Made by a program: the position numbers and the translations under genes. This document shows positions 4,948 to 30,078 of a stretch of DNA of 38,278 bases, in pieces. Numbering within the stretch: position 1 is the first letter of the stretch; each line of letters opens with the position of its first letter. The notes below the pieces were generated by a model. The model was not told where the DNA came from and did no database searches. It saw nothing but the letters and a program-made list of their open reading frames with translations. This DNA comes from a virus (taxonomy: Duplodnaviria; Caudoviricetes). The DNA lies in IMG/VR virus record IMGVR_UViG_3300025635_000072, positions 1-38,278 of that record. One strand, 5' to 3'.

Positions 4948-5718
4948 ATGGGAATTTTCAATATTATTCTAAAAAATTATCATAATTTTCAGGACGGGCG
5001 AGGCAAGGTTAAGGCCCGCCGTCATAAGAATGGTGGTGGCTGGGTTGCTGATACCGCCTTTGTATCATCCAGTGATACCTACATTGATAAGGACGCTAAG
5101 GTAAGTGATTTTGCTATCATAGATGGTAAATCTAAAATTATTGGTAAAGTAGATATTAGTGGTAAGACTTATATTGATAGCTCTACTATTAGAAATAATG
5201 TTTGTTCTAAACATTCCTCGTTAACTATTAAAGATAATGTTACTATTAGTAAATCAGAAATTAATGTAAATCAGTTATATTTTGACTCTGCTGTATCTTT
5301 AACTGCGAATATCACAGATAAAGTTTATATTGGTAACTCAAAAATTAACATTATTACTCGCCCATATTCTAGAGTTTTGATTTCAAATGACGTAAAAATT
5401 AGGGATGTAACCACTGATATTCCCACTTCATTAATTGGCAATTATGAAATTAATGATCCTATCTATTGGGTAACATTACCTAAAAATGTTATTGTAACAT
5501 CCCTACGGCATAAAAATAAAATTTTAATTGATGATAACAATTTTTCATTTATTGATGCCGCAACTGCAATTAATAATATAAAAAATCATAGAGATAGTCT
5601 CTATCTTTCTAATAAAGAAATGATTACTTCTATTGAATACCTAGTTTTGATGGAAAGTCAGAGAGAGAAACAGAGAGAGAGGCAAGAATACCCTAAAAAC
5701 TTGAAACATTTTGATTGA
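4948..5718 (+). CDS. left-handed beta-helix (hexapeptide-repeat-like) protein
   Basis: N-terminal FQDGRGKVKARRHKNGGGWVADTA followed by repeated I/V-x-D/G-x-A/S-K-I strands. Confidence 0.7.
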   Translation: MGIFNIILKNYHNFQDGRGKVKARRHKNGGGWVADTAFVSSSDTYIDKDAKVSDFAIIDGKSKIIGKVDISGKTYIDSSTIRNNVCSKHSSLTIKDNVTISKSEINVNQLYFDSAVSLTANITDKVYIGNSKINIITRPYSRVLISNDVKIRDVTTDIPTSLIGNYEINDPIYWVTLPKNVIVTSLRHKNKILIDDNNFSFIDAATAINNIKNHRDSLYLSNKEMITSIEYLVLMESQREKQRERQEYPKNLKHFD

Positions 5719-5743
5719 CTCTGATATCTGATAATAGTATACT
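5715..5743 (+). promoter_or_regulatory. sigma70-type early promoter
   Basis: TTGACT-17 nt-TATACT. Confidence 0.75.
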
Positions 5744-5786
5744 CTGGTCATAGAAAGACATAGAAACATAAAGGATACCAAATCTG

Positions 5787-5969
5787 ATGAATAGGAATAT
5801 GAACGATTATAATGGTATTGCATACATTGAAGTCTGTATTAATGGATACTGGCAACAGATTTCCTCGGGAATGATTGGTAGTATCCAACAGGATTTGGAT
5901 CAACTGAAACGCAATTCTGGTGATCCATTGCGCGCGGTCGATTCCAATGGCCGATTGGTTGCAATGTAA
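5787..5969 (+). CDS. hypothetical small protein
   Basis: ORF after the promoter with AAGGA RBS. Confidence 0.65.
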   Translation: MNRNMNDYNGIAYIEVCINGYWQQISSGMIGSIQQDLDQLKRNSGDPLRAVDSNGRLVAM

Positions 5970-5993
5970 CTATTATTATAGGGATAATATATT

Positions 5994-6605
5994 ATGAACA
6001 TTACTCGTCTCACACATCTAATTACTGTTCTTGAGAATGTAATTGCGGCAAAGAAGAAGTTTAGTTTGGATAATTGGGTTTCAGTTAATCTAAAGGAAAA
6101 AAATCCTGCATGTGGCACAACGGCCTGTGTAATGGGCTATGCTGCATTGGACCCAAAGTTTAATAAGATGGGACTAAAGCTAGAAATTGATTATTATATT
6201 GAAAATAATTATACTGGTTCTAGCACCCGTATTTGCAAGAATGTCGCAAGTGTCAATACGTTTAATGAAGAAATTATGCGTATGCGACGAATTGAAAACT
6301 CCACCGATAAAGATATCTTTATTACTGACAAGACATTCGATGTCATCTATAAGATTGGTAATAAAGATGCACTAGGGTATAGTGCAGGAATGCGTGCAGG
6401 AATGCAATTTTTTGATATCGAATATGAAACAGCGGATTTGTTGTTTAGTCCAGGTGCCTATTCTCCAAACAACAGTGGCCCCCGCCGAGTAATTCAGCGT
6501 ATTCAATATCTTATTGCTAATGGAGAAGATAAGTTTCATAAAAAGTATGAACAATACACTTATAATTTTTCTATTCGCCGCCGCATTACTAATAATGGCA
6601 TGTAG
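5994..6605 (+). CDS. CGTTAC-motif phage protein, paralog A
   Basis: CGTTACVMGYAALDPKF; C-terminal VIQRIQYLIANGEDKF; paralogous to 7261-7788. Confidence 0.75.
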   Translation: MNITRLTHLITVLENVIAAKKKFSLDNWVSVNLKEKNPACGTTACVMGYAALDPKFNKMGLKLEIDYYIENNYTGSSTRICKNVASVNTFNEEIMRMRRIENSTDKDIFITDKTFDVIYKIGNKDALGYSAGMRAGMQFFDIEYETADLLFSPGAYSPNNSGPRRVIQRIQYLIANGEDKFHKKYEQYTYNFSIRRRITNNGM

Positions 6606-6621
6606 TTTAACGGTAGAATAA
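6547..6621 (+). CDS. 24-aa hydrophobic micro-ORF (overlaps 3' end of paralog A)
   Basis: MNNTLIIFLFAAALLIMACSLTVE*; shares a 23-nt exact segment with ORF 15644-15763. Confidence 0.3.
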   Translation: MNNTLIIFLFAAALLIMACSLTVE

Positions 6622-6637
6622 TTTAATGTAACTAAGA
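6596..6637 (+). pseudogene. possible 5'-half tRNA remnant
   Basis: TGGCATG-TA-GTTT-AACGGTA-GAAT matches the acceptor/D-arm pattern; weak anticodon arm (GTA); no T-arm. Confidence 0.35.
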
Positions 6638-6681
6638 TTTATAGTTTATAGTGTAATATATACAATTATAAACTATAAATC
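6636..6681. promoter_or_regulatory. 15-bp inverted repeat abutting the HNH translation start, containing TATAAAT
   Basis: GATTTATAGTTTATA (6636-6650) / TATAAACTATAAATC (6667-6681); GGAAG at 6682 and ATG at 6691. Confidence 0.7.
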
Positions 6682-6690
6682 GGAAGTATT

Positions 6691-7227
6691 ATGCCAAACT
6701 GTTTAAAATGTGAGATAAATTTCCCAATTTACCATAAAACACCTGATGGAAAATTACATAATTTATGTAAAAGAAAATATTGTCTTTTATGTTCCCCATT
6801 TGGGTTAAAAAATCGCCGTAAACTACATAATCCAGGGGTTTTACAATTAGGTGAAGAAATATCAACATGCCAAGAATGTGGTAACTCATTCGTTTATAAT
6901 AGAAAAGCTGGAAATAGAACTACTAAATGTGCTTCATGCTATCGTAGAGGTTCTAGAATTAAAATTAAAGAAAAGGCAGTTGACTATAAAGGTGGTTCTT
7001 GTGTAAAATGTGGCTATAATAAAAGTCTACGTGCCTTAGTTTTTCATCATCGTGATCCACACGAGAAAAATTTTGGTATCGGGGGAAATCGTTGCCGAGC
7101 ATGGAAAAAGATTCAAATAGAATTAGATAAGTGTGATCTTTTGTGTTCAAATTGTCATGATGAAGAACATGATAAAATGGATGATGATCGTCGATATAAA
7201 AATAGACTTAAAAATATAGTAATGTAA
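6691..7227 (+). CDS. HNH endonuclease with N-terminal zinc-finger motifs
   Basis: CVKCGY...LVFHHRDP...KCDLLCSNCHDEEH; additional CxxC pairs. Confidence 0.88.
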   Translation: MPNCLKCEINFPIYHKTPDGKLHNLCKRKYCLLCSPFGLKNRRKLHNPGVLQLGEEISTCQECGNSFVYNRKAGNRTTKCASCYRRGSRIKIKEKAVDYKGGSCVKCGYNKSLRALVFHHRDPHEKNFGIGGNRCRAWKKIQIELDKCDLLCSNCHDEEHDKMDDDRRYKNRLKNIVM

Positions 7228-7260
7228 TAACCATTTATATTAATGAAATAGGAGCAAGTA

Positions 7261-7788
7261 ATGAATATTGAGAGACTGAAAATTCTAATTGACATTCTTG
7301 AAAATGTCCAGAAGGAACACAAGGAATTTGATCTTAGACATTGGGCTGATATTTCAAATAATATTGAAAATAATGATCCTATTTGTGGCACTACGGCATG
7401 TGCAATGGGCTATGCTGCATTAGACCCGCGTTTTAGTGAATTAGGTCTTCATTTAGTTGCAACTGTTCCATTTAATGAAAGTTATGATGGTGTAGATGCA
7501 CAGTATAACTCCGATCATATCATTAAAGATAATGATGATATGACTAGTCTAATTAAATTGCTTATGGAAAATCCACATGGTATGGATAAGATGGAGTTTT
7601 ATATTGAATATGGAAATCATCAGGATTTTAATGCTGGCGAGAAATTTTTTGATATTAGTAAGTCTACATCTCTTAGTTTATTCTATGCTGGGAGATATGG
7701 AGAATTTAGGGGAGTTGATAAGGTAATTGAACGTATTCAATATCTTGTTGATAATGGTGAAGATAAATTTTTGGGAAAATATAGTTGA
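7261..7788 (+). CDS. CGTTAC-motif phage protein, paralog B
   Basis: CGTTACAMGYAALDPRF; C-terminal VIERIQYLVDNGEDKF; RBS AGGAG. Confidence 0.78.
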   Translation: MNIERLKILIDILENVQKEHKEFDLRHWADISNNIENNDPICGTTACAMGYAALDPRFSELGLHLVATVPFNESYDGVDAQYNSDHIIKDNDDMTSLIKLLMENPHGMDKMEFYIEYGNHQDFNAGEKFFDISKSTSLSLFYAGRYGEFRGVDKVIERIQYLVDNGEDKFLGKYS

Positions 7789-7806
7789 TGATAGGAATAA
7801 TTAAAC

Positions 7807-7959
7807 ATGACTGCCGATGAAGCAATGGAATGGATTAATAAATTTGTTAAGGTTGCGAATCGTTCCGAGGATAGAGTAATGATTGCCCTACGGGATGAAG
7901 TCGAGAGTCTACGTAAGGATATTAGATATCTAGAAACAGTATTATACAGTAAAGTTTAA
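7807..7959 (+). CDS. 50-aa hypothetical helical protein (not in ORF track)
   Basis: MTADEAMEWINKFVKVANRSEDRVMIALRDEVESLRKDIRYLETVLYSKV*; RBS AGGA. Confidence 0.65.
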   Translation: MTADEAMEWINKFVKVANRSEDRVMIALRDEVESLRKDIRYLETVLYSKV

Positions 7960-7984
7960 TTTAAATCATATAGGAGATTACATA

Positions 7985-8275
7985 ATGAACAATACCAATA
8001 CAATTGCCAATGAGACTGTGGATGAAACCACAACTATTTCCCCTACATTTACTAAGCATAATTCTCGGCAGAAGGTTGGGATTAAGCATCGTAATTTTAC
8101 TGCGGATAATGACAATGGGACTTCCCATCGCAAGAACAAGGATAAGAAGAAGGCGCAGTATCTACGCAACGTGGCTACCCGTGCTGCCCTATATTCACAG
8201 TTTCAGGGCAATGCTGGGCGTAATCCAGGGGAATTTCATGCCGCTCTAAAGGCACTCTCCATGGGCACCGCATAG
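7985..8275 (+). CDS. basic hypothetical protein
   Basis: 96-aa ORF with AGGAG RBS; K/R-rich middle section. Confidence 0.7.
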   Translation: MNNTNTIANETVDETTTISPTFTKHNSRQKVGIKHRNFTADNDNGTSHRKNKDKKKAQYLRNVATRAALYSQFQGNAGRNPGEFHAALKALSMGTA

Positions 8276-8474
8276 AGCATATGAGTCGCATATTCTATCA
8301 TTAATTGGATTTGTTATTCTGGCATTTATAGGATATTTCGTAATATTTTCATGGTTCGATAAGGACCTTCCCACAATATATAAATGGGTTATTAATATTA
8401 TGGTATTTATACTCTATATTTTCGTTGCTTTTCGTAGTTATTGATAATTAAGGATTTATATTGGAGATTTAATT

Positions 8475-8777
8475 ATGTGCCATAATCCAGATACAGAGAA
8501 ATATACACAAAGATTGGTTGAATTGACTAATCTCGATAAGAATTGGTATACTAAGGAATATATTTCTCCAATTCCTAACCATGTCGCGGCTAATAACTGC
8601 CAGAAGTGGATTGATGAAAATTATTATACAACTAGAAATTATGTTATTATCATTACTCCAATGATTGATCATGCTGGAATTGAATTAGAATATACTAAGT
8701 TTCGGAGTGATGATAATGGAGATATTGTATATTTCTATAATGACGGCAGAATTGAATACTTATCTGAATTAGAATAA
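8475..8777 (+). CDS. hypothetical protein
   Basis: 100-aa ORF with GGAG RBS. Confidence 0.7.
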   Translation: MCHNPDTEKYTQRLVELTNLDKNWYTKEYISPIPNHVAANNCQKWIDENYYTTRNYVIIITPMIDHAGIELEYTKFRSDDNGDIVYFYNDGRIEYLSELE

Positions 8778-8805
8778 TAATTAGAATAGGAAATTCTAAT
8801 TATTA
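8775..8805. repeat. 13-bp AT-rich inverted repeat
   Basis: TAATAATTAGAAT-aggaa-ATTCTAATTATTA. Confidence 0.6.
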
Positions 8806-8819
8806 CATTTATTATTAGT

Positions 8820-8990
8820 ATGCTATTGATTTTATTTGCATGGAGTGTAGTATATGTTATTATTATTGGAGAACTAATTCAAAATAGTAAAATGAAAAGA
8901 ATGTTTCTTTATACTATTATAGCTACAGTAGCAGGTATTATTGGAGTGAGTGGATTTGTTCAATATTTAGTCTGGAATTATAATCCTTGA
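8820..8990 (+). CDS. 56-aa two-TM small membrane protein
   Basis: MLLILFAWSVVYVIIIGELIQNSKMKRMFLYTIIATVAGIIGVSGFVQYLVWNYNP*. Confidence 0.5.
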   Translation: MLLILFAWSVVYVIIIGELIQNSKMKRMFLYTIIATVAGIIGVSGFVQYLVWNYNP

Positions 8991-9015
8991 CATTCATTTA
9001 AGGTCATGCTATTGT
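8987..9015 (+). promoter_or_regulatory. sigma70-type promoter
   Basis: TTGACA-17 nt (ending TGC)-TATTGT. Confidence 0.6.
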
Positions 9016-9046
9016 AGTCATCTATTCAATATAGAGGATTAGTAAA

Positions 9047-9250
9047 ATGACCTTTGAAATTTATGATCGGGTAATGATCTGCAACACTGTCAAGTCTGAT
9101 ATTGAAAATGCCTTTGGACAAATAATTGGATTCTATACCGATGAATATTATATCGTTCAATTGGATACGCCAATTCGGGGTGGACAAACGGGTGTAGTAA
9201 TAAGTAAACATTGTTTAATTTCAGAACTGTTAGTAACTAAGGAACTATAA
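9047..9250 (+). CDS. small SH3/KOW-like beta protein
   Basis: FEIYDRVMI...GQIIG...YYIVQLD pattern; RBS GAGGA. Confidence 0.6.
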   Translation: MTFEIYDRVMICNTVKSDIENAFGQIIGFYTDEYYIVQLDTPIRGGQTGVVISKHCLISELLVTKEL

Positions 9251-9291
9251 TTCAGTAATCTATAAATCAACTTTATCAATGGAGAATTGCT

Positions 9292-9492
9292 ATGTATGAA
9301 GTAATTATTTACGATTCCGTATTTGGGCGCACAAAGGTAATTGATAAGGCGGATTTTACAAATGAAGATTGCGCCTGGGCATATTATGATCTAAAAATTA
9401 AGGAAAAGAATGAAGATTTGCCATCCAAGGCCAAATTGAAGGTTGAATTTAAGTATACCGGCAACGGTCATATTATTACTCATCCAGAATAA
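9292..9492 (+). CDS. hypothetical protein
   Basis: ORF with GGAG RBS. Confidence 0.65.
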   Translation: MYEVIIYDSVFGRTKVIDKADFTNEDCAWAYYDLKIKEKNEDLPSKAKLKVEFKYTGNGHIITHPE

Positions 9493-9505
9493 GGAGAACA
9501 ATTCC

Positions 9506-9850
9506 ATGGAATTGAAATATTGGCGGAAATATCTAAAAATTCAAAAGGAAAGGTATTATCTAAATTGTAATTATACTCCATCAAATCTATATCAAGTTTG
9601 GGATAATGGATATGATTATGATATTGAGTCTAATGGAAAGTGGCCGTTTCGTGGATATAGTTGTGGATTACGATCATGTGCGCCAGAGGCAATTGATAAA
9701 GTAACCGCACATAAAATGGCTATGTATTACAGGAAATATGGATATGAGAAATATATGCTAAAGTATATCCATAAGAATAAAAAACTTTCTCGAAATAAAT
9801 TCCATAAATATCTAGTTAGTTGGGAATATTTTGGAGAACCTAAACATTAA
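9506..9850 (+). CDS. basic/aromatic hypothetical protein (start revised to ATG 9506)
   Basis: AAGGAG RBS precedes MELKYWRK. Confidence 0.7.
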   Translation: MELKYWRKYLKIQKERYYLNCNYTPSNLYQVWDNGYDYDIESNGKWPFRGYSCGLRSCAPEAIDKVTAHKMAMYYRKYGYEKYMLKYIHKNKKLSRNKFHKYLVSWEYFGEPKH

Positions 9851-9868
9851 ATTGATTAATGCCTGTAT

Positions 9869-9921
9869 ATCCATCACCAGAAAGGATTAGAAATAATCTA
9901 ATTTGGTGATGGATTTTTTTT
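9869..9921 (+). terminator. rho-independent terminator
   Basis: ATCCATCACCAGA...GATTA-GAAA-TAATC...TTTGGTGATGGAT followed by a T run. Confidence 0.85.
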
Positions 9922-9939
9922 ATTTAAAAGATAAAATCA

Positions 9940-9947
9940 TATAAATA
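9940..9947 (+). promoter_or_regulatory. T4-type late (gp55) promoter
   Basis: Exact TATAAATA 30 nt upstream of ATG 9978. Confidence 0.75.
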
Positions 9948-9977
9948 CAATAAAATAGATAAATAGGAAACTCATTT

Positions 9978-10883
9978 ATGGTTATTAGAAATTTTAAAGA
10001 TTTTATCAATAGTTTAATTCTAGAGGAATTACATCCAGAATTACAGAAAATTATTGAAACTCCATCCAGTATTAATCCCAATGATTTAAAGAAACAGACG
10101 TTACTTACTAAGAAAATCCAGGATTTAACCAAGGCAGGGGAGAAGACAGGTATTGAGGGAAACATGCCCCAGGGATCATCCAGGGCTTATCTACAGCATG
10201 ATGAACCTACTCAGGTGATACTAGATGGTCAACCAACCAACCTTAAAATGGGCACTAAAGTTGCTATTACTGCTGATCTAGATAAACATCATAATAAAGA
10301 ATACTATGATGGGCATAGTCTAGGTGCAATGCAAAATAAGGCCGAAGCCGGGGATGGTTGGGTTAATGCAACATATAGAATGTTGCGGGAACATTCCGAA
10401 CGCCCTGGCCATTTTAAATCCAATAAAAATATGGGCATATTTCCCCCATTAATTAAACATGACCATGATACTCATCAATGGTCACAGGTCGGCCATGCTG
10501 AAAATATGAAATCTAAAGATTTTGAAAAATTAACTAAAAATGAAGATTTCCCCAAGGGTATTTCTCATGATGATTTTGTGCATACGTTAGTTAGATCACA
10601 TCAAAGAAGTAATGGTAAATATCATGACCAAACTCCAAATAGAGAAAAAGAGTTAGATAAAATTGAGCAACATCCATTAACTCAGAAATTTCTAGATTAT
10701 CATAATAATACTGGTCATCCACCATATGATTTAATGCAAATTCAAAATATGGGAATATGGCATCATCCAGATGGAAGTAAACATATTGTTGCCAGGGATC
10801 ATGGATTTGATACAGAAGTCATGGATGCATATGCTAAAGCTAAGAGAAAACGGTATGATGATGCTTTTCCTAAAAGTTATTAA
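9978..10883 (+). CDS. putative protein-kinase-fold protein with capsid-targeting-like N-terminus (candidate internal head protein)
   Basis: G66SSR, K94, E123, D251..N257 and D274HG in kinase subdomain order; N-terminal FKDFINSLILEE; late promoter. Confidence 0.65.
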   Translation: MVIRNFKDFINSLILEELHPELQKIIETPSSINPNDLKKQTLLTKKIQDLTKAGEKTGIEGNMPQGSSRAYLQHDEPTQVILDGQPTNLKMGTKVAITADLDKHHNKEYYDGHSLGAMQNKAEAGDGWVNATYRMLREHSERPGHFKSNKNMGIFPPLIKHDHDTHQWSQVGHAENMKSKDFEKLTKNEDFPKGISHDDFVHTLVRSHQRSNGKYHDQTPNREKELDKIEQHPLTQKFLDYHNNTGHPPYDLMQIQNMGIWHHPDGSKHIVARDHGFDTEVMDAYAKAKRKRYDDAFPKSY

Positions 10884-10893
10884 TATTTTCCGC

Positions 10894-10923
10894 TTGACAT
10901 AACCCCTTCACCTATGATAGAAT
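10894..10923 (+). promoter_or_regulatory. sigma70-type promoter (extended -10)
   Basis: TTGACA-18 nt-(TGa)TAGAAT. Confidence 0.65.
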
Positions 10924-10966
10924 CTTCTCTATAATTCAAATATAAAATAGAGAGGATTTTATCAAT

Positions 10967-12055
10967 ATGAATATTGAACGTAATAATGAACGTAAACTTG
11001 CGACTATTAGACAAATTAGTAATATTACTCCAATTCCCGATGCTGATGCAATTGAACTGGCATCTGTTGATGGTTGGAATGTTGTTGTAAAGAAAGATGA
11101 ATTTAAGATTGGCGATCCATGCATCTATATTGAGATTGACTCGTGGGTTCCAAATGAAATTGCTCCCTTTCTATCAAAGGGTAAGCCTCCCAAGGAATAT
11201 CAGGGTATTAAGGGGGAACGTCTAAAGTCAATTATGCTGCGTAAGCAATTAAGTCAGGGACTAATTCTCAGTTATTGGGATTATCCTAAAGTTGTTGATG
11301 CATACCATAAGACACGTCTAGTATCGGAGAATGACGGTGATTTTGACGTTACTGATATTCTTGGCATTGTCAAATGGGAAAAAGAAATTTCTGCTAATCT
11401 TCGGGGAATTGTAAAGGGTAATTTTCCCTCATATATTCCAAAGACAGATCAGACACGAGTCCAGAATATGGGACGAACATTTTCTCATATTCAAGATGAA
11501 AATTATACTTGGGAAGTGACAGAGAAGCTAGATGGTTCCAGTATGACAATCTATCTCAATAAAGATGGAGTGTTTGGTGTATGCTCACGTAATTATGATT
11601 TGGAACGTGATGAAAATAATGCTTATTGGAGGGCTGCGGCATTCAATGGCGTTGATTATGAGGCAATTCTTCGTAACTATGAACGAATGGATATGTATTT
11701 TGCATTACAGGGTGAATTGATTGGGGAAGGTGTTCAGGGCAATCCATATAATCTAAAGGGAACACATTTTTATATTTTCGATATTTTCGATATTGATGAA
11801 CAAAAATATCTATCGGCTATTAATAGAAAGTTAATTATCAGTAATAATGTCGAATTGAGTAGTGTTCCAGTAATTGATCTTAATTATTATATTACTGATT
11901 ATAATTCTAGGGATATTCTGGAAATGGCTGATGGGCATTCTAGAATTAATGATAAAGTATTGCGTGAGGGTTTGGTATTTAAATGTGCGGAAACCCCAGA
12001 TATCTCCTTCAAGGCAATTTCAAATAAGTGGCTTCTCAAAAACGGAGATAAGTAA
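10967..12055 (+). CDS. RNA ligase 2 family (DRB0094-type, N-terminal OB/tRNA-binding domain)
   Basis: RKLATIRQI...PIPDADAIE N-terminus; motif I EKLDGSS; QGELIG; REGLVFK; FKAISNKWL. Confidence 0.9.
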   Translation: MNIERNNERKLATIRQISNITPIPDADAIELASVDGWNVVVKKDEFKIGDPCIYIEIDSWVPNEIAPFLSKGKPPKEYQGIKGERLKSIMLRKQLSQGLILSYWDYPKVVDAYHKTRLVSENDGDFDVTDILGIVKWEKEISANLRGIVKGNFPSYIPKTDQTRVQNMGRTFSHIQDENYTWEVTEKLDGSSMTIYLNKDGVFGVCSRNYDLERDENNAYWRAAAFNGVDYEAILRNYERMDMYFALQGELIGEGVQGNPYNLKGTHFYIFDIFDIDEQKYLSAINRKLIISNNVELSSVPVIDLNYYITDYNSRDILEMADGHSRINDKVLREGLVFKCAETPDISFKAISNKWLLKNGDK

Positions 12056-12432
12056 TGGTATTTGATATTGATCCAAAATTTAATGTTGGAGATATCTTCT
12101 GGGTTCCACGAGTGCATAGAAATACAATCCAGAGAACAGTTATCGTAGATAATAAAGTTTATAGTAGAAACGAAGATATTTTATATCCTACAGCCAAACC
12201 AAAATTGGTTCATAAAATTGAAATTATTATTGTAAAAAAATCTAGAGATAAGAATTATGACGATATTGGTATAGTTTATTATGTAAAATCTATTGCGGGA
12301 TTTATGACAAAATATTCGGGTAAAGATAAATTATTTCATAATGAGGAAAATGCCATGGAATACGCAAAATATTTTCACGAAACATGTCCAAATCAAACTT
12401 ATTATGGTGCGGGGATTGATAATAATGAATAA
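12055..12432 (+). CDS. hypothetical protein (KOW/SH3-like start PKFNVGD)
   Basis: Translationally coupled ORF. Confidence 0.65.
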   Translation: MVFDIDPKFNVGDIFWVPRVHRNTIQRTVIVDNKVYSRNEDILYPTAKPKLVHKIEIIIVKKSRDKNYDDIGIVYYVKSIAGFMTKYSGKDKLFHNEENAMEYAKYFHETCPNQTYYGAGIDNNE

Positions 12433-12459
12433 TTTTAAAAATAATAAAAGGAATAATAC

Positions 12460-12873
12460 ATGAAGGTAGTAGTAGCAGGATCACGAGCAATTAGTGAATT
12501 ATATTATGTTCAATTTGCCATTAAAAGTGCCAATATCTATATTAGTGAATTAGTAAGTGGTGGGGCAAATGGTATTGATAAACTAGGTGAACAATGGGCC
12601 AGGGATAATAATATCAACATTAAATTATTTCCTGCCGATTGGGATCAATATGGTAAATCAGCCGGCCCAATGAGAAATGCAGAAATGGCAGATTATTGTG
12701 ATGCAGCAATTATTATTTGGGATGGTAAATCCAAGGGAACGTTTAATATGATAGAAAATATCAAGAAGCGAAAAAAGCCCTTGCATCTATCCGTCTTTCA
12801 GGTATATAATTGGTGGAAGGATAAGAAGCCTAAAGAACTTAATAAACCACACTATAGCAGAGAATTTCAGTAA
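12460..12873 (+). CDS. YspA/SLOG-family (DUF2493-like) protein
   Basis: MKVVVAGSR, VSGGANGID, FPADW..YGKSAGPMRN, WDGKSKGT. Confidence 0.85.
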   Translation: MKVVVAGSRAISELYYVQFAIKSANIYISELVSGGANGIDKLGEQWARDNNINIKLFPADWDQYGKSAGPMRNAEMADYCDAAIIIWDGKSKGTFNMIENIKKRKKPLHLSVFQVYNWWKDKKPKELNKPHYSREFQ

Positions 12874-12973
12874 ACTAATAATAGTATAAGGAATTAGCGT
12901 CTCTCTACTATTCTTCTGTGCATCAACTTATGCCGCATCTCAGGCATTTAAGTAAAAGAGAAAGTAAATAATT

Positions 12974-13204
12974 ATGCGAGTAAGTGAATTGAAGTCATTA
13001 TTGACACAATTTAATGATAATGATTTAGTAGTAATAGAAAATACTGTAATTACTGGTGTCTCTCGTATTAGAGGAAAGTCTAATACTACGGATTCTAAGG
13101 GTAATAGTATATTTAGACCTAATGATAAAGGTGATGTATTTGCATTGAAGTTCATCCGGTTACAGGAATTGAGTGATGGCAAAATATATGATGTTGTAAT
13201 ATAG
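12974..13204 (+). CDS. hypothetical protein
   Basis: MRVSELKSLL..FNDNDLVVI start, common in small phage proteins. Confidence 0.65.
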   Translation: MRVSELKSLLTQFNDNDLVVIENTVITGVSRIRGKSNTTDSKGNSIFRPNDKGDVFALKFIRLQELSDGKIYDVVI

Positions 13205-13214
13205 GGAATATAAA

Positions 13215-13763
13215 ATGAGCAAAAATAATGGTGGCAATGGTCGGACATGGATAACTTCGGATTTACATTTTTCTCATGCAGGAGTAACTAAGTTTCTCAT
13301 GGAAGATGGAGTTACTAAACTTCGTCCCTGGGATAATATTGAAGATATGGATGAGGAATTAATTAGAAACTTTAATGATCATGTTAAGCCAGGAGATAAA
13401 TGTTATTTTCTTGGAGATATGGTTATTAATAGACGTGGATTGCCTCAAATTGGGCGCCTGAATGGTGATAAGATTCTCATTAAGGGAAATCATGATATTT
13501 TTCGTCTGGATGAATATCTAAAGTATTTTAGGGATATTCGTGCATACCAAATTCAAAATAATATTGTCATGAGTCATATTCCTATTCATTCAGAATCCAA
13601 GGGTAGATTTAGGGCTAATATTCATGGCCATACTCATGCAAATAAAGTAAAGGATCAATACGGAAATATTGATCCATGGTATATTTGTGTTTGTGTAGAA
13701 CAGACTGAATTTAAGCCTGTCCTAGTGAGTGATCTATATGATAGGATTAATAATGGTATCTAA
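13215..13763 (+). CDS. calcineurin-like metallophosphoesterase
   Basis: SDLHFSH, LGD, GNHD, SHIP and HGHTH motifs. Confidence 0.9.
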   Translation: MSKNNGGNGRTWITSDLHFSHAGVTKFLMEDGVTKLRPWDNIEDMDEELIRNFNDHVKPGDKCYFLGDMVINRRGLPQIGRLNGDKILIKGNHDIFRLDEYLKYFRDIRAYQIQNNIVMSHIPIHSESKGRFRANIHGHTHANKVKDQYGNIDPWYICVCVEQTEFKPVLVSDLYDRINNGI

Positions 13764-13995
13764 TACAATAGCAGATAAGATTGCTCAATATAAAGCATAT
13801 AAGGATTTACAGGAAAAATTTAATAATGAAATTGAAAAATTTCTAGTGGAATTAAAGAATTCTTGTGATGGAACATGTGGAAATTATGTAAAATTAAGGA
13901 TTTATACTCCTAGCACATATTATGATAGTGCATATGATACAATTTATATGAATTGTAAAATTTGTGGTAAGTCTGAATATCTCGGAACCATGTAA
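13753..13995 (+). CDS. small protein with C-terminal Cys motif (start revised)
   Basis: CDGTC...CKICG; overlaps the upstream stop. Confidence 0.6.
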   Translation: MVSNTIADKIAQYKAYKDLQEKFNNEIEKFLVELKNSCDGTCGNYVKLRIYTPSTYYDSAYDTIYMNCKICGKSEYLGTM

Positions 13996-14019
13996 TTTCC
14001 GATAATATGGTTTTCATGA

Positions 14020-14048
14020 TTGACATCATAACGATTTTATGATAGAAT
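14020..14048 (+). promoter_or_regulatory. sigma70-type promoter (extended -10)
   Basis: TTGACA-17 nt-(TGa)TAGAAT. Confidence 0.8.
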
Positions 14049-14111
14049 ACGACACTTCCTGATTTAATAGGAAGGACTAAGTTAATAAACAACAATACAA
14101 AAGGAATTAAA

Positions 14112-14366
14112 ATGCAAACTGCAACTATTTCTAATACTAATACTACAACATCTAATGGAACAAAGGCAGATCGGCTTCTTTCAGCACTGAAAAGCGAACA
14201 TGCCCAGGTAAACGGCTTGACATCGCGCCAGATTTCCGCTAGGTTTAGTGTATCGTCTCCCAGGGACCTTATTCATCGTCTTCGTAAGAATGGACATACT
14301 ATTGTTCTAGAGGAAACTGTCACAACTAAAGGTAAATCCAGGCAGAAATATTTTCTGGATGACTAA
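14112..14366 (+). CDS. winged helix-turn-helix DNA-binding protein
   Basis: RLLSALK...LTSRQISARFSVSSPRDLIHRLRKNGHTI...KY. Confidence 0.75.
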   Translation: MQTATISNTNTTTSNGTKADRLLSALKSEHAQVNGLTSRQISARFSVSSPRDLIHRLRKNGHTIVLEETVTTKGKSRQKYFLDD

Positions 14367-14378
14367 TAAACTAACTTA

Positions 14379-14395
14379 ATGTTGCATCGCAGCAT
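14379..14395. promoter_or_regulatory. PhaR/AniA-like operator (imperfect palindrome)
   Basis: ATGTTGCATCGCAGCAT; core TGCATCGCAGCA fits the recalled rhizobial PhaR consensus TGCRNYGCASMA. Confidence 0.5.
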
Positions 14396-14412
14396 ACAGA
14401 AAATATCATAGG

Positions 14413-14441
14413 TAGACATACAAATCTTCGGGTGTTATGAT
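14413..14441 (+). promoter_or_regulatory. sigma70-type promoter of the DUF1127 gene
   Basis: TAGACA-17 nt-(TGt)TATGAT. Confidence 0.6.
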
Positions 14442-14477
14442 ATAGATATCAGTAAATATAACACTAGGAGATTTGAT

Positions 14478-14624
14478 ATGTTACAATTTATTAGAGGCTT
14501 TTTAAATAGACGAAAACAATATAATGAATTAATGAAATTGACTGATAGAGACTTGCATGATATTGGACTTACTAGAAGTCAAGTAATGTTCGATATTAAA
14601 AGAGAATGTGACAGATATATTTAA
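14478..14624 (+). CDS. DUF1127 (YjiS-like) small protein (not in ORF track)
   Basis: MLQFIRGFLNRRKQYNELMKLTDRDLHDIGLTRSQVMFDIKRECDRYI; signature ELxxLxDRxLxDIGLxR; RBS AGGAG. Confidence 0.88.
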   Translation: MLQFIRGFLNRRKQYNELMKLTDRDLHDIGLTRSQVMFDIKRECDRYI

Positions 14625-14644
14625 CCCGTATAAGGATTTATATT

Positions 14645-14737
14645 ATGGATCTTTTGCCTAATGGTTTAATTACTACGACTCTCGTAGTAACTGCCGCAGG
14701 GATTATATTTACAATTATTGCAGCAATTTTGTGTTAA
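14645..14737 (+). CDS. 30-aa single-TM micro-protein
   Basis: MDLLPNGLITTTLVVTAAGIIFTIIAAILC*; TAAGGATTTATATT leader. Confidence 0.6.
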   Translation: MDLLPNGLITTTLVVTAAGIIFTIIAAILC

Positions 14738-14765
14738 TTTTATTATAATTATAGGATCATATATT

Positions 14766-14942
14766 ATGAATGCTTGTGTTATCTTTTTCACTCTGGTATT
14801 ATATGGACAAGTAAATATGGTTGTCCCAAATCTTCCCAATCAAATTACATGCACTAATGTTGGTGATAAAACAATAAAAGAACTAGACTCACTATATAAA
14901 ACTAATAAGTTTAGATATACTTGTGTTACTACTTGTAAGTAA
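14766..14942 (+). CDS. small Cys-containing protein with hydrophobic N-terminus (start revised)
   Basis: AGGA RBS before MNACVIFFTLVLYG. Confidence 0.6.
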   Translation: MNACVIFFTLVLYGQVNMVVPNLPNQITCTNVGDKTIKELDSLYKTNKFRYTCVTTCK

Positions 14943-14952
14943 ATAATATTAA

Positions 14953-15028
14953 TGCGGCGGTAGATCAGTCAGGTTAGATTAATTGACTCATAATCAATAG
15001 GTCGGTGGTTCAAATCCACCCTCCGCAA
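14953..15028 (+). tRNA. tRNA with CAT anticodon (Met; fMet-like acceptor and D arms)
   Basis: TGCGGCGG-TA-GATC-AGTCAGGTTA-GATT-A-ATTGA-CTCATAA-TCAAT-AGGTC-GGTGG-TTCAAAT-CCACC-CTCCGCA-A; no encoded CCA. Confidence 0.85.
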
Positions 15029-15038
15029 TAAATTATAA

Positions 15039-15105
15039 CTGGATGTAGCTCAGTGGCAGAGTGCTTGCTTTGGAAGCGAGAGGTCGGAATTTCCCATCCA
15101 GACCA
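15039..15105 (+). tRNA. tRNA-Pro(TGG) with truncated T-arm (67 nt; possibly a pseudogene)
   Basis: Perfect acceptor CTGGATG/CATCCAG-A-CCA, intact D and anticodon arms (CTTGC-TTTGGAA-GCGAG), T-arm reduced to GGAATTTCC. Confidence 0.75.
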
Positions 15106-15121
15106 ATTACTAGGAATTATA

Positions 15122-15337
15122 ATGAAATACTATATGGACAATAAAAGGCATCTAGTCTGTCTTCCATATAGTATTGAAAATCTCCATCAAATGGCAATAA
15201 AATTAAATATTAATCGTTGCTGGTTTCATAAGAATCATTATGATATACCTAAACGGCGAATGGAGGAAATGAAATTATTATGTAATGTAGTTTCATCCCG
15301 AGATATATTGAATATAATAAAGAATGGAAATTATTAA
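15122..15337 (+). CDS. DUF4031-like small protein (start revised to ATG 15122)
   Basis: RHLVC...IENLHQMA..LNINRCWF...HYDI motif; AGGA RBS. Confidence 0.65.
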   Translation: MKYYMDNKRHLVCLPYSIENLHQMAIKLNINRCWFHKNHYDIPKRRMEEMKLLCNVVSSRDILNIIKNGNY

Positions 15338-15593
15338 TATGATAAAGATTGAAAACAATGATCAATTGAAGAATTGTCCATTCTGTGGAACATTACATGA
15401 AACATATATGGAACCGACATATTTAAGTAGATCACCTAGAATGGGCAGAAGTAATGATGAAACTAACGTAATTAGCGTAGAAATTCGTCACTGGTGCCCA
15501 AATATTCCTGGACAACCTAGCCAGAGAGTGATAGTAAAGGTTGGGCGCGATGTAGAATCGGTAATCAAATTATGGAATATGCGATATGAATAA
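15324..15593 (+). CDS. Lar-like (restriction alleviation) zinc-ribbon protein
   Basis: LKNCPFCG ... C ... IKLWNMR. Confidence 0.6.
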   Translation: MEIINMIKIENNDQLKNCPFCGTLHETYMEPTYLSRSPRMGRSNDETNVISVEIRHWCPNIPGQPSQRVIVKVGRDVESVIKLWNMRYE

Positions 15594-15654
15594 TGTTTAT
15601 ATGTTTATTGGAATTTTACTTTTAGTTATATTGTATAATATCTATGGAAATTAA
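15586..15654 (+). CDS. 22-aa single-TM micro-protein
   Basis: MNNVYMFIGILLLVILYNIYGN*; coupled to neighbours. Confidence 0.4.
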   Translation: MNNVYMFIGILLLVILYNIYGN

Positions 15655-15763
15655 TATTGTTCTATTAATTTTTCTATTCGCCGCCGCAGTAATTATTTAT
15701 GAACATTTAGGATCATTCCTAATCTTTCCACAGAGGAATTACAGAAGAAGATTGACGAATTGA
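15644..15763 (+). CDS. 39-aa membrane micro-protein
   Basis: MEINIVLLIFLFAAAVIIYEHLGSFLIFPQRNYRRRLTN*. Confidence 0.45.
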   Translation: MEINIVLLIFLFAAAVIIYEHLGSFLIFPQRNYRRRLTN

Positions 15764-15790
15764 GTTAATTTATAAAAGGATTAAATAAGC

Positions 15791-16180
15791 GTGAAGCCAA
15801 TGATTCATTCCAAACTTTCGGTCAAAAGATACGGCGGAAAGCGCGAAGATTATCTACCAATTCATAATATGATGGATATTAGCAAGTCTGCATTAGCTGA
15901 TGTTCGTCATCGGGCTATTCTCCATAATTCATTAGGTCCATATCTAATGGAACATATTTTCGGAACAACTATTACTAACTCGGATAATACGGAAGTTTGT
16001 GTTCGTGATATTGCCGAAGATCATATTATGGAGGATTTAGGTCGTATTCCAACCATTGAACAATGGCTAAAAGGTGTTAAGGTTGAACCGTGGATGGCCG
16101 GTGGTGTTCTTAAATATAAGAAAATGATGGAACAAGAGGAACAATCCGATAACAACAATAATCAAGTCAATTTAGATTAA
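15791..16180 (+). CDS. DUF6915-like His-rich protein
   Basis: HSKLSVKRYGGKREDYLPIHNMMD..K....D.RHRAILH...VRDIAEDHIMEDLG.IP. Confidence 0.7.
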   Translation: MKPMIHSKLSVKRYGGKREDYLPIHNMMDISKSALADVRHRAILHNSLGPYLMEHIFGTTITNSDNTEVCVRDIAEDHIMEDLGRIPTIEQWLKGVKVEPWMAGGVLKYKKMMEQEEQSDNNNNQVNLD

Positions 16181-16198: not shown

Positions 16199-16684
16199 AT
16201 GGCAAATTTTAAAATTACAGAAGATACAGTAATTTCTAATCTAGGTGAAGCTCTAGTAGTTGAATTGGATATGCTACGTCTTGAATATAAGAACAAGTGT
16301 AAAGATGCATTCAATAGATTACTTAGGGTATTTTTTGAAACATATCCCCAGGTGAAAACTATTTATTGGGCACAATGGGTTCCAGGATTTAATGATGGTG
16401 ATCCTTGCACATTTACATTAGGTGATATTAATTTTTCTCCCAGTGATTGGCGAGAAATTGATGGTCCATATGCTGATGATGAAAATGAAGATGATGAAAG
16501 AAAGAAGTTTAACGTTCCCTGGAATCTTAAAGAGGTAACTGATGCTTTTACAATTGACCTAAAAGCTATGAATGACGTAATCTGTGATCTAGAAGACCAT
16601 CTAGAATCTGCATTTGGTAGTCATGCCTTTGTTCGTATTCATCGGGATGGAATGGAGGTAGATGATTATGATTGTGGATACTAA
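16199..16684 (+). CDS. acidic conserved phage protein (FNDGDPC motif)
   Basis: WAQWVPGFNDGDPCTF ... FGSHAFV. Confidence 0.7.
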   Translation: MANFKITEDTVISNLGEALVVELDMLRLEYKNKCKDAFNRLLRVFFETYPQVKTIYWAQWVPGFNDGDPCTFTLGDINFSPSDWREIDGPYADDENEDDERKKFNVPWNLKEVTDAFTIDLKAMNDVICDLEDHLESAFGSHAFVRIHRDGMEVDDYDCGY

Positions 16685-16691
16685 TTCTAAT

Positions 16692-17807
16692 ATGAAATTT
16701 CTGAAATTTAAGAAAGAGGATACATTGGCTGTATATGTGGGACGATTCCAAATCCCACATATTGGTCATTCCCATATTGTTTATAAGGGACTGGAAATTG
16801 CCGATAGAGTATTGATTGTCCTAGGTTCTGCCAATGAATCCCCTAGTTTCCGCAATCCATTTTCAGTAAATGACAGAATTGCTATGCTTAGGACATATTT
16901 TAATTATAAAAATTATTTTAACTATGCTAATATTTTAGATAATATTGTTTATGATAAAATTGAAGACGATCTATATGGAAATATGTGGTATAATAATTTA
17001 GATAAAATTGTCACTAAATGGAAAGATAGTTATGGATATAAAAATATCGTTCTAATTGGTCATCATAAAGATTCTTCATCCGATTATCTACGGGATACCA
17101 ATATTAAGAATGTAGTGGAATTTGAGGCAATTCCAGGCATTCATTCAAGTGATATGCGTAAATTGTATTTTACCGAGGAAACTAAGAACGAAATTTACAA
17201 TCAATACGATAAGTTATCTGCCGGCACAATTAATTTTCTTAGTTCTCATATGAATATGAAGGAATATTATAATATTCAGAATGAGATGAAGGCTATTAAT
17301 AAGAATAAAGAAATCTGGAAAAATTCTCCATATCCACCCTTATTTGTAACGACTGATTCATGTGTTGTATGTAAGGAACATGTATTAGTAATTCGTCGTA
17401 AGAATTATCCTGGTAAGGGTCTTCTTGCTCTGCCCGGTGGATATCTAAATGAAAATGAAGATATTCAAGATGGGATGATGCGGGAATTACTTGAAGAAAC
17501 TTCATTGACTAATAGAATTGATTATAAAATTATTACCAACTCAATTAAGTTACGGAAGGAATTTTCACATCCACAACGTTCCGAACGTGGAAGAATTATT
17601 ACCTTTGCATCATTGATTATGTTAGACCAGTATATGCTAATGGACCTATATGATTTTGATGAAGATGAATTACCACATGTGGAGGCTGCTGATGATGCAG
17701 AGGAAGCATTTTGGCTACCATTGAAAGACCTTAAAAGTCGCCGTGCAGAATTTTTCGAGGATCATTATCATATGATCAATTATTTTGTTCGGAAGGCTAT
17801 TTATTAA
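16692..17807 (+). CDS. nadM: bifunctional NMN adenylyltransferase / ADP-ribose pyrophosphatase (NadM-Nudix, NatV-like)
   Basis: GRFQIPHIGH (HxGH), GSAN...RNPF, SSDMR; Nudix box GGYLNENEDIQDGMMRELLEETSL; DDA, FEDH. Confidence 0.92.
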   Translation: MKFLKFKKEDTLAVYVGRFQIPHIGHSHIVYKGLEIADRVLIVLGSANESPSFRNPFSVNDRIAMLRTYFNYKNYFNYANILDNIVYDKIEDDLYGNMWYNNLDKIVTKWKDSYGYKNIVLIGHHKDSSSDYLRDTNIKNVVEFEAIPGIHSSDMRKLYFTEETKNEIYNQYDKLSAGTINFLSSHMNMKEYYNIQNEMKAINKNKEIWKNSPYPPLFVTTDSCVVCKEHVLVIRRKNYPGKGLLALPGGYLNENEDIQDGMMRELLEETSLTNRIDYKIITNSIKLRKEFSHPQRSERGRIITFASLIMLDQYMLMDLYDFDEDELPHVEAADDAEEAFWLPLKDLKSRRAEFFEDHYHMINYFVRKAIY

Positions 17808-17825
17808 TTATAGGAGATTATTATA

Positions 17826-18161
17826 ATGAATCATAATGAAAATGTTCAAAACATTATGTGTAATATTACGGTGGAAAAACAATCCCCACGTCAAATCCCC
17901 GAGCATTATACTTTTTATGTTATGAGTGGGGATGTATCTAAAAGCACTAAATTTGATTTTAGTGTTAAATATTCTGATCTATATCCTATTATTATTGAAA
18001 ATATTCACTCTAGGTTTCCTTATCTACATTCATTATTACTAAAGACATTTCCCGAAAAGAAAAAATATACATGGCCAGATGGTCTAGCCGAGGAATTACC
18101 TACTGGTAATGTTGATGCTGGAAAATTTATTTGTTTTATTCGGGATTTAGCTCATAGTTAA
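17826..18161 (+). CDS. hypothetical protein
   Basis: 111-aa ORF with AGGAG RBS. Confidence 0.65.
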   Translation: MNHNENVQNIMCNITVEKQSPRQIPEHYTFYVMSGDVSKSTKFDFSVKYSDLYPIIIENIHSRFPYLHSLLLKTFPEKKKYTWPDGLAEELPTGNVDAGKFICFIRDLAHS

Positions 18162-18178
18162 TAAGAGGAATTTATATT

Positions 18179-18550
18179 ATGATGACTTTGGATGAAGTGA
18201 AGACTATTGTATTCGATTGTCGTTATTTAATTGGATGGGATATTTTAGTAAAATTAGATAATGATCGTCCATATCTACAAATTTCGGTGGATGATACTGA
18301 TAATTTTACTGGACTACCTTTAAGGTGGACTGGACGTAAATGGTTTCTTAGTTACCATATGTGCAAAAATGAAATTGTCAATACTGTATATAAAGCAATT
18401 GAGGCGGCGGTGATGCATGAAATGCGGGAAAATTTCTTATATAAAAATACAGCTATCTTTAATCCACACCTAGACCCCGATAAACTTGTTGACTTCGTGA
18501 ATAATCCTGATAATATCAATGAACGAGAGAACTCAGAACAAGCAGTATAA
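18179..18550 (+). CDS. conserved phage hypothetical protein (GRKW / HExRE / FNPH motifs)
   Basis: WTGRKWFLSYHM..NEIV....KA......HEMRENFLY....IFNPH. Confidence 0.7.
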   Translation: MMTLDEVKTIVFDCRYLIGWDILVKLDNDRPYLQISVDDTDNFTGLPLRWTGRKWFLSYHMCKNEIVNTVYKAIEAAVMHEMRENFLYKNTAIFNPHLDPDKLVDFVNNPDNINERENSEQAV

Positions 18551-19971
18551 TGGAGAGTAATAATAAAATGATGCAGATTGAACCAATTAATACTATTATG
18601 AATGCTGATTCCTATAAGGATAGTCATTTTAATCAGCTTCCTCCCGGCACCACTCATATGTATTCCTACATTGAATCTCGCGGCGGAATGTTTGATAAGA
18701 CATTGTTCTTTGGTCTACAGATGTTCTTAAAACAATATCTTTCCGTTCCAATTACTCTGCAAGATATTAATGATGCAGAGGAAGACTCTAGTATTCATGG
18801 AACACCATTCAATCGTCAGGGTTGGATGTATATTCTTCGTAACCACAATGGTTACATGCCAGTGGAAATTCGTGCATTGCCAGAGGGAACAGTTATTCCT
18901 ACTAGGAATGTTCTATTGACTATTGTGAATACTGATCCTAATGTTCCCTGGATCACTAGCTATGTAGAAACTGCATTGCTTCGTGCAATTTGGTATCCTA
19001 CAACCGTGGCCACACTGTCCTGGCACGCAAAGCAAATTATTCGTTCATATCTTGAAAAGACTTGTGATAATCCAGAGGCAGAACTACCGTTTAAGTTGCA
19101 TGATTTTGGTGCCCGTGGTGCATCATCGGAGGAAACTGCCGCCCTGGGTGGAACTGCACATCTAGTTAATTTCATGGGAACAGATACTAAATCCGCATTG
19201 CGCTATGCACGTCATTTCTATGGTGAACGTATGGCCGGTTTCTCAATTCCTGCCATGGAACATTCCACAGTTACTTCCTGGGGTAAGGATAATGAGATTG
19301 GTGCATATAAGAATATGCTACAGAATTACGCCAAGCCTGGAAAGATTCTTGCTATTGTAAGTGATAGCTATGATCTGGAAAATTGCGTTAGGAATATTTG
19401 GGGGGATGCTCTAAAGGAAGATGTAATTAATTCTGGTGCGGTGGTCGTTGTTCGTCCTGATAGTGGCGATCCCGAATTGGTCCCAACCGAAACAATTAAA
19501 ATTCTTGGTGAAAAGTATGGGTCTACCGTAAATAAAAAGGGATATAAGGTATTACATCCATCCGTGCGGGTTATTCAGGGTGATGGCGTGAATATTGATA
19601 CTATTCCTATTATTTATGATAATCTAACTAAGATGGGATGGTCTGCGGAAAATCTCAATCTAGGTATGGGTGGTGGATTGCTACAGAAGGTGGACCGGGA
19701 CAGCCTACGTTTCGCCATGAAGGCTTCTGCGGTATGTATCAATGGAGTATGGCAGGATGTGTATAAGGACCCTGTGGGCGATCCTGGGAAGCGTTCTAAG
19801 AAAGGCCGATTTGTTGTTACATTTAACCCAGATGATGGTTGGCAAACCCTACCATTAAACAGTGGACATGACTGGGATGATATGCTACAACCTGTATGGA
19901 GGGACGGAGTTCTGCTTAGGGATCAATCATTCCAGCAAATTCGTGAGATTTCTAATTTACAATTCTCCTAA
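18550..19971 (+). CDS. nadV: nicotinamide phosphoribosyltransferase (NAMPT)
   Basis: DSYK..H, YIESR, LHDFGARG, SIPAMEHS, SDSYD, RPDSGDP, IQGDG, GMGGGLLQ, KSKKG-like motifs. Confidence 0.95.
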   Translation: MESNNKMMQIEPINTIMNADSYKDSHFNQLPPGTTHMYSYIESRGGMFDKTLFFGLQMFLKQYLSVPITLQDINDAEEDSSIHGTPFNRQGWMYILRNHNGYMPVEIRALPEGTVIPTRNVLLTIVNTDPNVPWITSYVETALLRAIWYPTTVATLSWHAKQIIRSYLEKTCDNPEAELPFKLHDFGARGASSEETAALGGTAHLVNFMGTDTKSALRYARHFYGERMAGFSIPAMEHSTVTSWGKDNEIGAYKNMLQNYAKPGKILAIVSDSYDLENCVRNIWGDALKEDVINSGAVVVVRPDSGDPELVPTETIKILGEKYGSTVNKKGYKVLHPSVRVIQGDGVNIDTIPIIYDNLTKMGWSAENLNLGMGGGLLQKVDRDSLRFAMKASAVCINGVWQDVYKDPVGDPGKRSKKGRFVVTFNPDDGWQTLPLNSGHDWDDMLQPVWRDGVLLRDQSFQQIREISNLQFS

Positions 19972-29624: not shown

Positions 29625-30078
29625 TTGGTGTTTCTATTCCAATATTAACACTATCAATAGTAATATCCTTGGGAAAATTTATTGTGTTAACTTTAAAATT
29701 ATCTACAACAGACATAGATAATATTGGAACTAATGTGATATCGTTATCATAAAGTGATTTAATTATTGAACCAAGATGATTATTAAGTAATTTTATTCCA
29801 ACATAAAGTTTATTTCCTGAGATATTCATATCAACAATTTTATGTGATGCATCAGTAATTTTATTATTAATAAGCATATCTGTGTCTACTATACCACCAT
29901 ATGCAGTATGATCATATATTTTTACTAAATATTCATTTAGTGCTTTATTAATAACACTAGCTTGATAACATATATTAGTATATGGGTTTATTTTACCCAC
30001 TCTCAAAATATAAGCCTCATAAATTTGATTGGTTGTATCAATACAAATAAAATTACTTCTATATTTATAAGGTTCCAT
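29614..30078 (-). CDS. degenerate gp21 prohead-protease-like protein
   Basis: Collinear similarity to T4-like gp21 (N..Y...I.KA..EY; SHKI; GNKLYVGIKLLNNHLGSIIKSL), but no GELxH or GVSSRG. Confidence 0.55.
   Translation of the reverse strand: MEPYKYRSNFICIDTTNQIYEAYILRVGKINPYTNICYQASVINKALNEYLVKIYDHTAYGGIVDTDMLINNKITDASHKIVDMNISGNKLYVGIKLLNNHLGSIIKSLYDNDITLVPILSMSVVDNFKVNTINFPKDITIDSVNIGIETPNAH

Follow-up and report, generated by a model that had tools for sequence, protein, structure and literature searches.

A plus-strand gene of an uncultured freshwater T4-like phage, located within a 38,278-nucleotide stretch of viral DNA (referred to here as the window), encodes a 301-residue protein with a predicted protein-kinase-like fold, preceded by a T4-type late promoter and beginning with a leader that resembles T4 capsid-targeting sequences. 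The layout of the locus and the motifs of its product are confirmed, and a kinase fold with late, leader-tagged deployment is supported by sequence comparison and structure prediction. The account that we favor is that the kinase is made late, packaged into the head, injected, and phosphorylates host proteins; we put the probability of this whole account, which draws on sequence, a structural model and analogy, at about 0.45.

The window encodes a late sigma factor, gp46/47, UvsW, UvsY, a gp3-like protein and major head genes, which identify it as T4-like, and its head-gene fragment is 75.6% identical to that of Sinorhizobium phage phiM12. Freshwater metagenomes are the best carriers of the stretch, with no RNA run among the 24 runs listed as carrying it, and a lake-metagenome contig of a related strain covers it in one piece, so it is not an assembly artefact. 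The features considered here are as follows.

9869..9921, plus strand: hairpin plus U run resembling an intrinsic terminator, preceding the late promoter (folding z -5.84)
9940..9947, plus strand: T4-type late promoter consensus TATAAATA (exact word match)
9958..9969, plus strand: second late-type core GATAAATA, overlapping the likely ribosome-binding site AGGAA (sequence reading)
9978..10025, plus strand: residues 1-16, capsid-targeting-like leader, F-x-x-F then I-L-E16 (homolog alignment, pattern scan)
9978..10883, plus strand: predicted 301-aa protein-kinase-like enzyme without the helical substrate-binding part of the C-lobe (ORF call, structure prediction, conservation)
10894..10923, plus strand: extended -10 sigma70-type promoter serving the RNA ligase gene that follows (11/12 consensus matches)
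10967-12055, downstream of the kinase gene: RNA ligase gene (Pfam and PHROG matches)
31638-32198: gp55-type late sigma factor (annotation of window genes)

The initial annotation described the kinase gene as walled off among early genes by a strong terminator, an exact T4 late promoter and a sigma70 promoter that restarts early transcription, and all three elements are present. The hairpin (9869-9914) has a 13-bp stem and an inner 6-bp stem (-25 kcal/mol), is matched by none of 200 shuffled sequences, and is followed by a T run to 9921; it was not listed by the consensus scanner. The TATAAATA word at 9940-9947 is the sole plus-strand copy in the window, which holds three copies against 13.4 expected from shuffles, so the single match is not above chance by count; depletion of the word would nonetheless be expected if it acts as a late promoter. 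The GATAAATA core itself (9958-9965) is a word that also precedes the gp3-like late gene of the window. The site at 10894-10923 (TTGACA-18-TAGAAT with TG) ties for the best of 80 sigma70-like sites in the interval 5000-16000, where 69.7 are expected by shuffling and the class overall is near chance. No terminator was found downstream of the kinase gene, which is therefore walled off upstream only. Insulation is not a family trait, with an upstream terminator in 3/32 homolog loci (compared to 28/360 in the background) and a downstream sigma70 site in 1/32; the wall is local to this genome.

Several other features of the window were noted. An exact minus-strand TATAAATA lies at 8404-8411 with only a 42-aa ORF (8246-8374) behind it, and a late antisense transcript from this site is possible. 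A 154-aa minus-strand ORF between gp47 and gp46 (29614-30078) has TATAAATA within its first codons and a weak match to head maturation proteases (E 7.5e-6). A paralogous gene pair with weak PHROG 889 matches flanks an HNH endonuclease (5994-6605 and 7261-7788), and the nucleotidyltransferase-Nudix and nicotinamide phosphoribosyltransferase genes at 16662-19971 constitute an NAD-rebuilding set; by eye, this pair is also near the kinase gene in L003, L010 and L018. A functional link between the kinase and the downstream RNA ligase was considered and rejected, as the ligase gene is served by a separate promoter and is not conserved beside the kinase in the homolog loci, and no conserved neighbor hinting at a kinase target was found in these loci.

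The late signal recurs among relatives of the gene. From 45 viral loci fetched, 32 were retained after removal of 11 duplicates and two partial genes, and [AC]TAAATA is present within 70 nt of the start in 18 of the 32 kinase loci compared to 45 of 371 other ORFs, noting that the loci are kin and not independent, and that p-values overstate the difference. In 11 of the remaining 14 loci, inspected by eye, such a site precedes the kinase gene at a distance of one to three genes. Late expression, originally proposed from the single promoter, thus appears to be a property of the family to the extent that sequence signals report it.

The family is a large one for which Pfam has no model, and it appears almost exclusively in phage DNA. 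The query protein has no significant match in Pfam, PHROG or PDB sequence searches; its relatives are 270 proteins among 543 candidates, forming 151 clusters at 50% identity (the best 150 of the 151 were listed, and many are fragments). A tblastn search with three family members yielded no match in 50,697 GenBank phage records, so that no cultured close carrier is known here, and a scan of 185,579 prokaryote genomes gave two loci. The only near-full-length copy found in a bacterial-looking context (L091:2998-3798, 50% identity) is GC-rich, has no leader, has an altered GSSR motif, and lies beside a repeat-protein gene in a Bryobacteraceae MAG; host capture or a decaying copy are possible explanations. 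Among unusual members, five are tandem kinase-kinase proteins (P0122, P0147, P0166, P0169 and P0179), L016:5109-6870 is an adjacent gene pair, and P0198, P0199 and P0229 have long Lys/Arg-rich tails, which by analogy with the shutoff domain of the T7 gp0.7 kinase (T7K) might bind DNA.

Cultured relatives are more distant. One remote match (P0269) led to nine cultured records, and the family profile matches XacN1 ORF170, Munch_046 and Slickus01 WGH49852 with hhalign probabilities of 96.3-97.6; profile-profile comparison with PHROG 4301 relatives gave 96.3-98.6. XacN1 ORF170 and Munch_046 are members of PHROG 4301 (function unknown), Munch_046 being labelled 'putative protein kinase', and Slickus01 WGH49852 is closely related to XacN1 ORF170. 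The PHROG 4301 profile is matched by 8 of 79 relatives and not by the query itself, and on these profile comparisons the family is distantly linked to PHROG 4301. The two share a core of GSSR, K, QNxxE, D..N and DxG together with the C-terminal truncation, and differ in that the query has several insertions plus additional helical sequence at its N-terminus. XacN1 ORF170 and Slickus01 WGH49852 also begin with L-x-E leaders, and GATAAATA precedes the XacN1 gene pair containing ORF170, whereas Munch_046 lacks a leader and is preceded by a sigma70-type promoter, from which we infer that the wider family is used both ways. The supplement of PMC5852040 lists XacN1 ORF170 as a predicted ORF only, the passages of PMC7824862 and PMC4621102 considered contain nothing on the kinase family, and no description of the family or of leader-mediated kinase packaging was found in the literature searched, the coverage of which excludes most subscription papers.

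The 301-aa ORF product contains no cysteine and 22 histidines, and its kinase motifs G66-S-S-R, K94, Q119-N-x-x-E123, D251-x5-N257 and D274-H-G occupy the positions originally assigned to them. An AlphaFold model built with 121 aligned sequences (pLDDT 88.2, pTM 0.82) was used for the fold comparison that the initial annotation proposed, and structure searches returned kinase-like folds with modest scores. The 50 matches listed by VIA are kinase-fold or SAICAR-synthetase chains, the best having a Z of 6.3 (rmsd 3.0-3.7 over 116-130 residues), within the range under 8 that the tool warns can be common. Foldseek found no PDB match to the query model at E<=0.001, and in a BFVD search the best E was 1.7e-9, annotated phage protein kinases ranking fifth and lower. 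The predicted structure is thus bilobed, as in the protein-kinase-like (PKL) superfamily, to which nearly all of the top matches belong. Residue roles, assigned by order and by secondary structure in the model, include the beta3 Lys, alphaC Glu, catalytic Asp, Mg-binding Asn and DxG Asp of the superfamily. In 79 sequences spanning 21-73% identity, hand-chosen for length and spread (9 close and 70 distant), G66, R69, K94, G116, D251, D274 and G276 show no variation, and at least 90% of the sequences retain E123 and N257. Neither an activation loop nor substrate-binding helices appear in the model and alignment; a single helix follows the DxG motif and the chain ends 27 residues past D274, so that the usual substrate-binding lobe is missing. 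Predicted structure and conservation thus both bear out the proposed kinase fold and catalytic residues, and the protein is very probably an active kinase-fold enzyme.

What such an enzyme would phosphorylate is less clearly indicated, since in the modeled structures the fold matches are split among protein, RNA and small-molecule kinases. Bud32 and the RNA kinase Ark1 tie for first place in the VIA search (both Z 6.3). A compact relative divides the tools further, with VIA ranking protein kinases first (Z 7.8), whereas Foldseek leads with aminoglycoside, methylthioribose and choline kinases. The tie with Ark1 and the Foldseek order would suit a kinase that is packaged and injected but whose target is tRNA or some other RNA, a nucleotide or a small metabolite, the enzyme being one component of an injected kit for nucleotide and RNA handling, and the presence of nucleotidyltransferase-type proteins among the leader-tagged cargo (see below) is in keeping with this. 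However, small-molecule kinases such as APH hold their substrate by a large helical insert and the C-lobe, both of which the query lacks, the VIA order for the compact relative favors protein kinases, and the RNA ligase gene is not a conserved neighbor. We consider a non-protein target unlikely.

The leader is the main evidence for packaging. An [ILVM]-x-E motif occupies residues 14-16 in 120 of 121 close homologs, with E16 invariant, and corresponds to the L/I-X-E cleavage motif of T4 gp21 (PMC9026906); from the sequence, a prohead-protease cut is predicted after E16. The leader fits the T4 internal-protein type, with aromatics three residues apart followed by L/I-x-E, although this pattern was fitted after seeing the family. 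Strict and loose versions were both written in this way, so their counts within the family are circular: 101 and 114 of the 121 close homologs pass, respectively, compared to 27 and 38 of the 79-sequence set, the leader being weaker in distant members. Applied to 35 T4 genes, the strict pattern at first selected nothing, missing IPII and IPIII, and after post hoc relaxation of one position it selected these two only, with IPI still missed. Among the 54 ORFs of the window, the strict pattern picks the kinase gene only and the loose pattern two. Of the 976 ORFs in four carrier records, 14 pass, four of them being the kinase and two apparently false, and a late core accompanies 8 of these 14 compared to 107 of the 962 others.

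A held-out test used 145 ORFs from two regions of S-CREM2, less seven structural genes, scored against Table 3 of PMC10665884. Of the four ORFs that pass the loose pattern, three are virion proteins, compared to 10 of the 134 others, a calibration with four positives only, for which the authors of that report allow for co-purification; the strict pattern had no match among the ORFs tested. Leader-tagged neighbors of the kinase genes fall in PHROGs 3041 and 36119, as do the virion-detected S-CREM2 ORFs 154 and 156. The virion-detected ORFs 6, 14 and 154 pass the leader pattern (L051:10579-12846 and other ORFs), and the leader would explain their being in particles; ORFs 13 and 15 look leader-like by eye. 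In L003, L005, L006 and L018 the kinase gene is followed by that of a leader-tagged protein of about 400 aa with its own TATAAATA, and the three that were scanned all belong to the GP88 family (PF17338). Composition also distinguishes the leader-tagged proteins: in L003-L043 and L055-L090, those that are not kinases contain 6.1% His compared to 2.5% in others, and 16 of 26 are Cys-free compared to 152 of 982. The kinase family has 8.5% His, and 88 of 121 members are Cys-free; a His-rich, Cys-poor make-up is possibly a compositional signature of head cargo. The proposal of a T4-like capsid-targeting N-terminus is therefore supported by both the conserved [ILVM]-x-E motif and the held-out test, and packaging and cleavage of the kinase are likely on these sequence grounds.

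The late promoter is the one element of deployment seen directly, and the protein could instead be a late, unpackaged intracellular kinase with an end-of-infection role such as lysis timing, exclusion or late defence, its leader being vestigial or a helix with a structural role. Conservation is in fact higher for the helix after E16 than for the leader (0.83 versus 0.63), and the leaderless, early-type Munch_046 suggests that the wider family can work without packaging. Against this stand the occurrence of the same leader on unrelated proteins, the detection in virions of most leader-positive S-CREM2 proteins, and a composition that matches the leader-tagged class, and we regard an unpackaged kinase as rather improbable. 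Late synthesis and head targeting would bring a packaged kinase into contact with phage proteins first, and L/I-x-E is also the cleavage site of T4 core proteins (PMC9026906), such that the enzyme might act on phage proteins in the prohead or on co-injected cargo during assembly, maturation or ejection. In most homolog loci, however, the gene is outside the head cluster and its neighbors change freely, and the lack of matches to the three members searched against the GenBank phage records argues against a core assembly gene; a phage-protein target seems more improbable still. A pseudokinase or ATP-binding scaffold without phosphotransfer might account for the single Gly in the Gly loop, the truncated C-lobe, and a catalytic loop one residue longer than the canonical form (D-x5-N in 21 of 79 sequences, including the clade of the query, and D-x4-N in 55), but it is very improbable given that the Lys, Glu, Asp, Asn and Asp are each retained in sequences spanning 21-73% identity.

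Returning to the account of an injected kinase acting on host proteins, the protein would be made late from the T4-type late promoter, directed into the prohead core by its leader and cleaved after E16; in this genome, the upstream terminator may prevent its premature production by early read-through. It would then be ejected with the DNA and phosphorylate host proteins ahead of phage gene expression, its open active site being promiscuous by analogy with T7 gp0.7, and so blunt host defences or reset host physiology. We put injection combined with a host-protein substrate at a little under even odds. More speculatively, the family may comprise lid-less promiscuous kinases preloaded into capsids by T4-like and jumbo phages for general counter-defence from the moment of entry, which would make them the virion-borne equivalent of T7K, with other phages such as Munch expressing a tag-less kinase early; this joint reading is doubtful. 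T7K disarms defences but only once expressed, whereas a pre-made injected kinase, if the account is true, could act ahead of all phage gene expression, at the point where restriction and sensing systems attack. Alishewanella phage Slickus01, a cultured distant relative with a leader, makes the packaging question testable.

The packaged-kinase concept is partly in print, although the kinase family itself is unnamed. The initial annotation knew of no capsid-packaged kinase in T4-like phages, which is wrong as regards virion association, as an APH/ChoK-like kinase (ORF14, 21 peptides) has been reported from S-CREM2 virions in PMC10665884, where earlier findings of virion kinases in S-CRM01 (a homolog of the S-CREM2 enzyme), S-TIM5 and S-CBWM1 are cited. 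The leader offers a mechanism for these unexplained kinases of cyanophage virions, which the authors could not separate from contamination. S-CREM2 ORF14 is likewise a protein-kinase-like enzyme of a T4-like phage, and we observe that it lies behind a gene with TATAAATA and starts with the same type of leader. However, it is 755 aa in length with a long N-terminal region and the canonical H-G-D-x4-N motif, whereas members of the query family are about 290 aa and stop after DxG; no homology is detectable between them (hhalign probability 0.5), and a homologous relationship is rejected.

No Pfam kinase family matches the query, one weak Alpha-kinase match was seen among the 79 members, and none of the 79 matches the polyvalent-kinase model that we take Pfam to contain. 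The query family occurs as stand-alone or tandem proteins in T4-like lytic phages, whereas polyvalent kinases are found in Bacteroidetes and Verrucomicrobia prophages. Iyer et al. 2017 (PMC5512222) described the kinase domain of phage polyvalent proteins as having lost its C-terminal subdomain while keeping the active site intact, and predicted that these kinases are injected and act like T7K. The model and alignment suggest that the query has similarly lost this subdomain, but it lacks the His-insert-Asp loop and has no conserved His before D251.

Among T4 proteins, Alt and IPI-III have an N-terminal propeptide ending in L/I-x-E as in the query, the 16-residue leader of which is between those of IPIII and IPI in length, whereas the T4 ip genes have no late core within 70 nt. 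Alt is a packaged and ejected host-modifying enzyme (PMC9026906), although it ADP-ribosylates, unlike the predicted kinase. The T7 gp0.7 kinase core likewise has a non-DFG motif and no regular C-lobe, ending at its DFG-like motif, and BFVD and Atlas give weak links between T7K and the query; membership of the query in the T7 gp0.7 group is nonetheless rejected (hhalign 0.3, with T7K PHROGs 2828, 15752 and 18305 not matched). T7K acts against defences by promiscuous phosphorylation through an open active site after early expression, and has DPV where the query has DHG (PMC13645617). The query has no shutoff domain, and its late promoter and leader set it apart from the early-expressed T7K.
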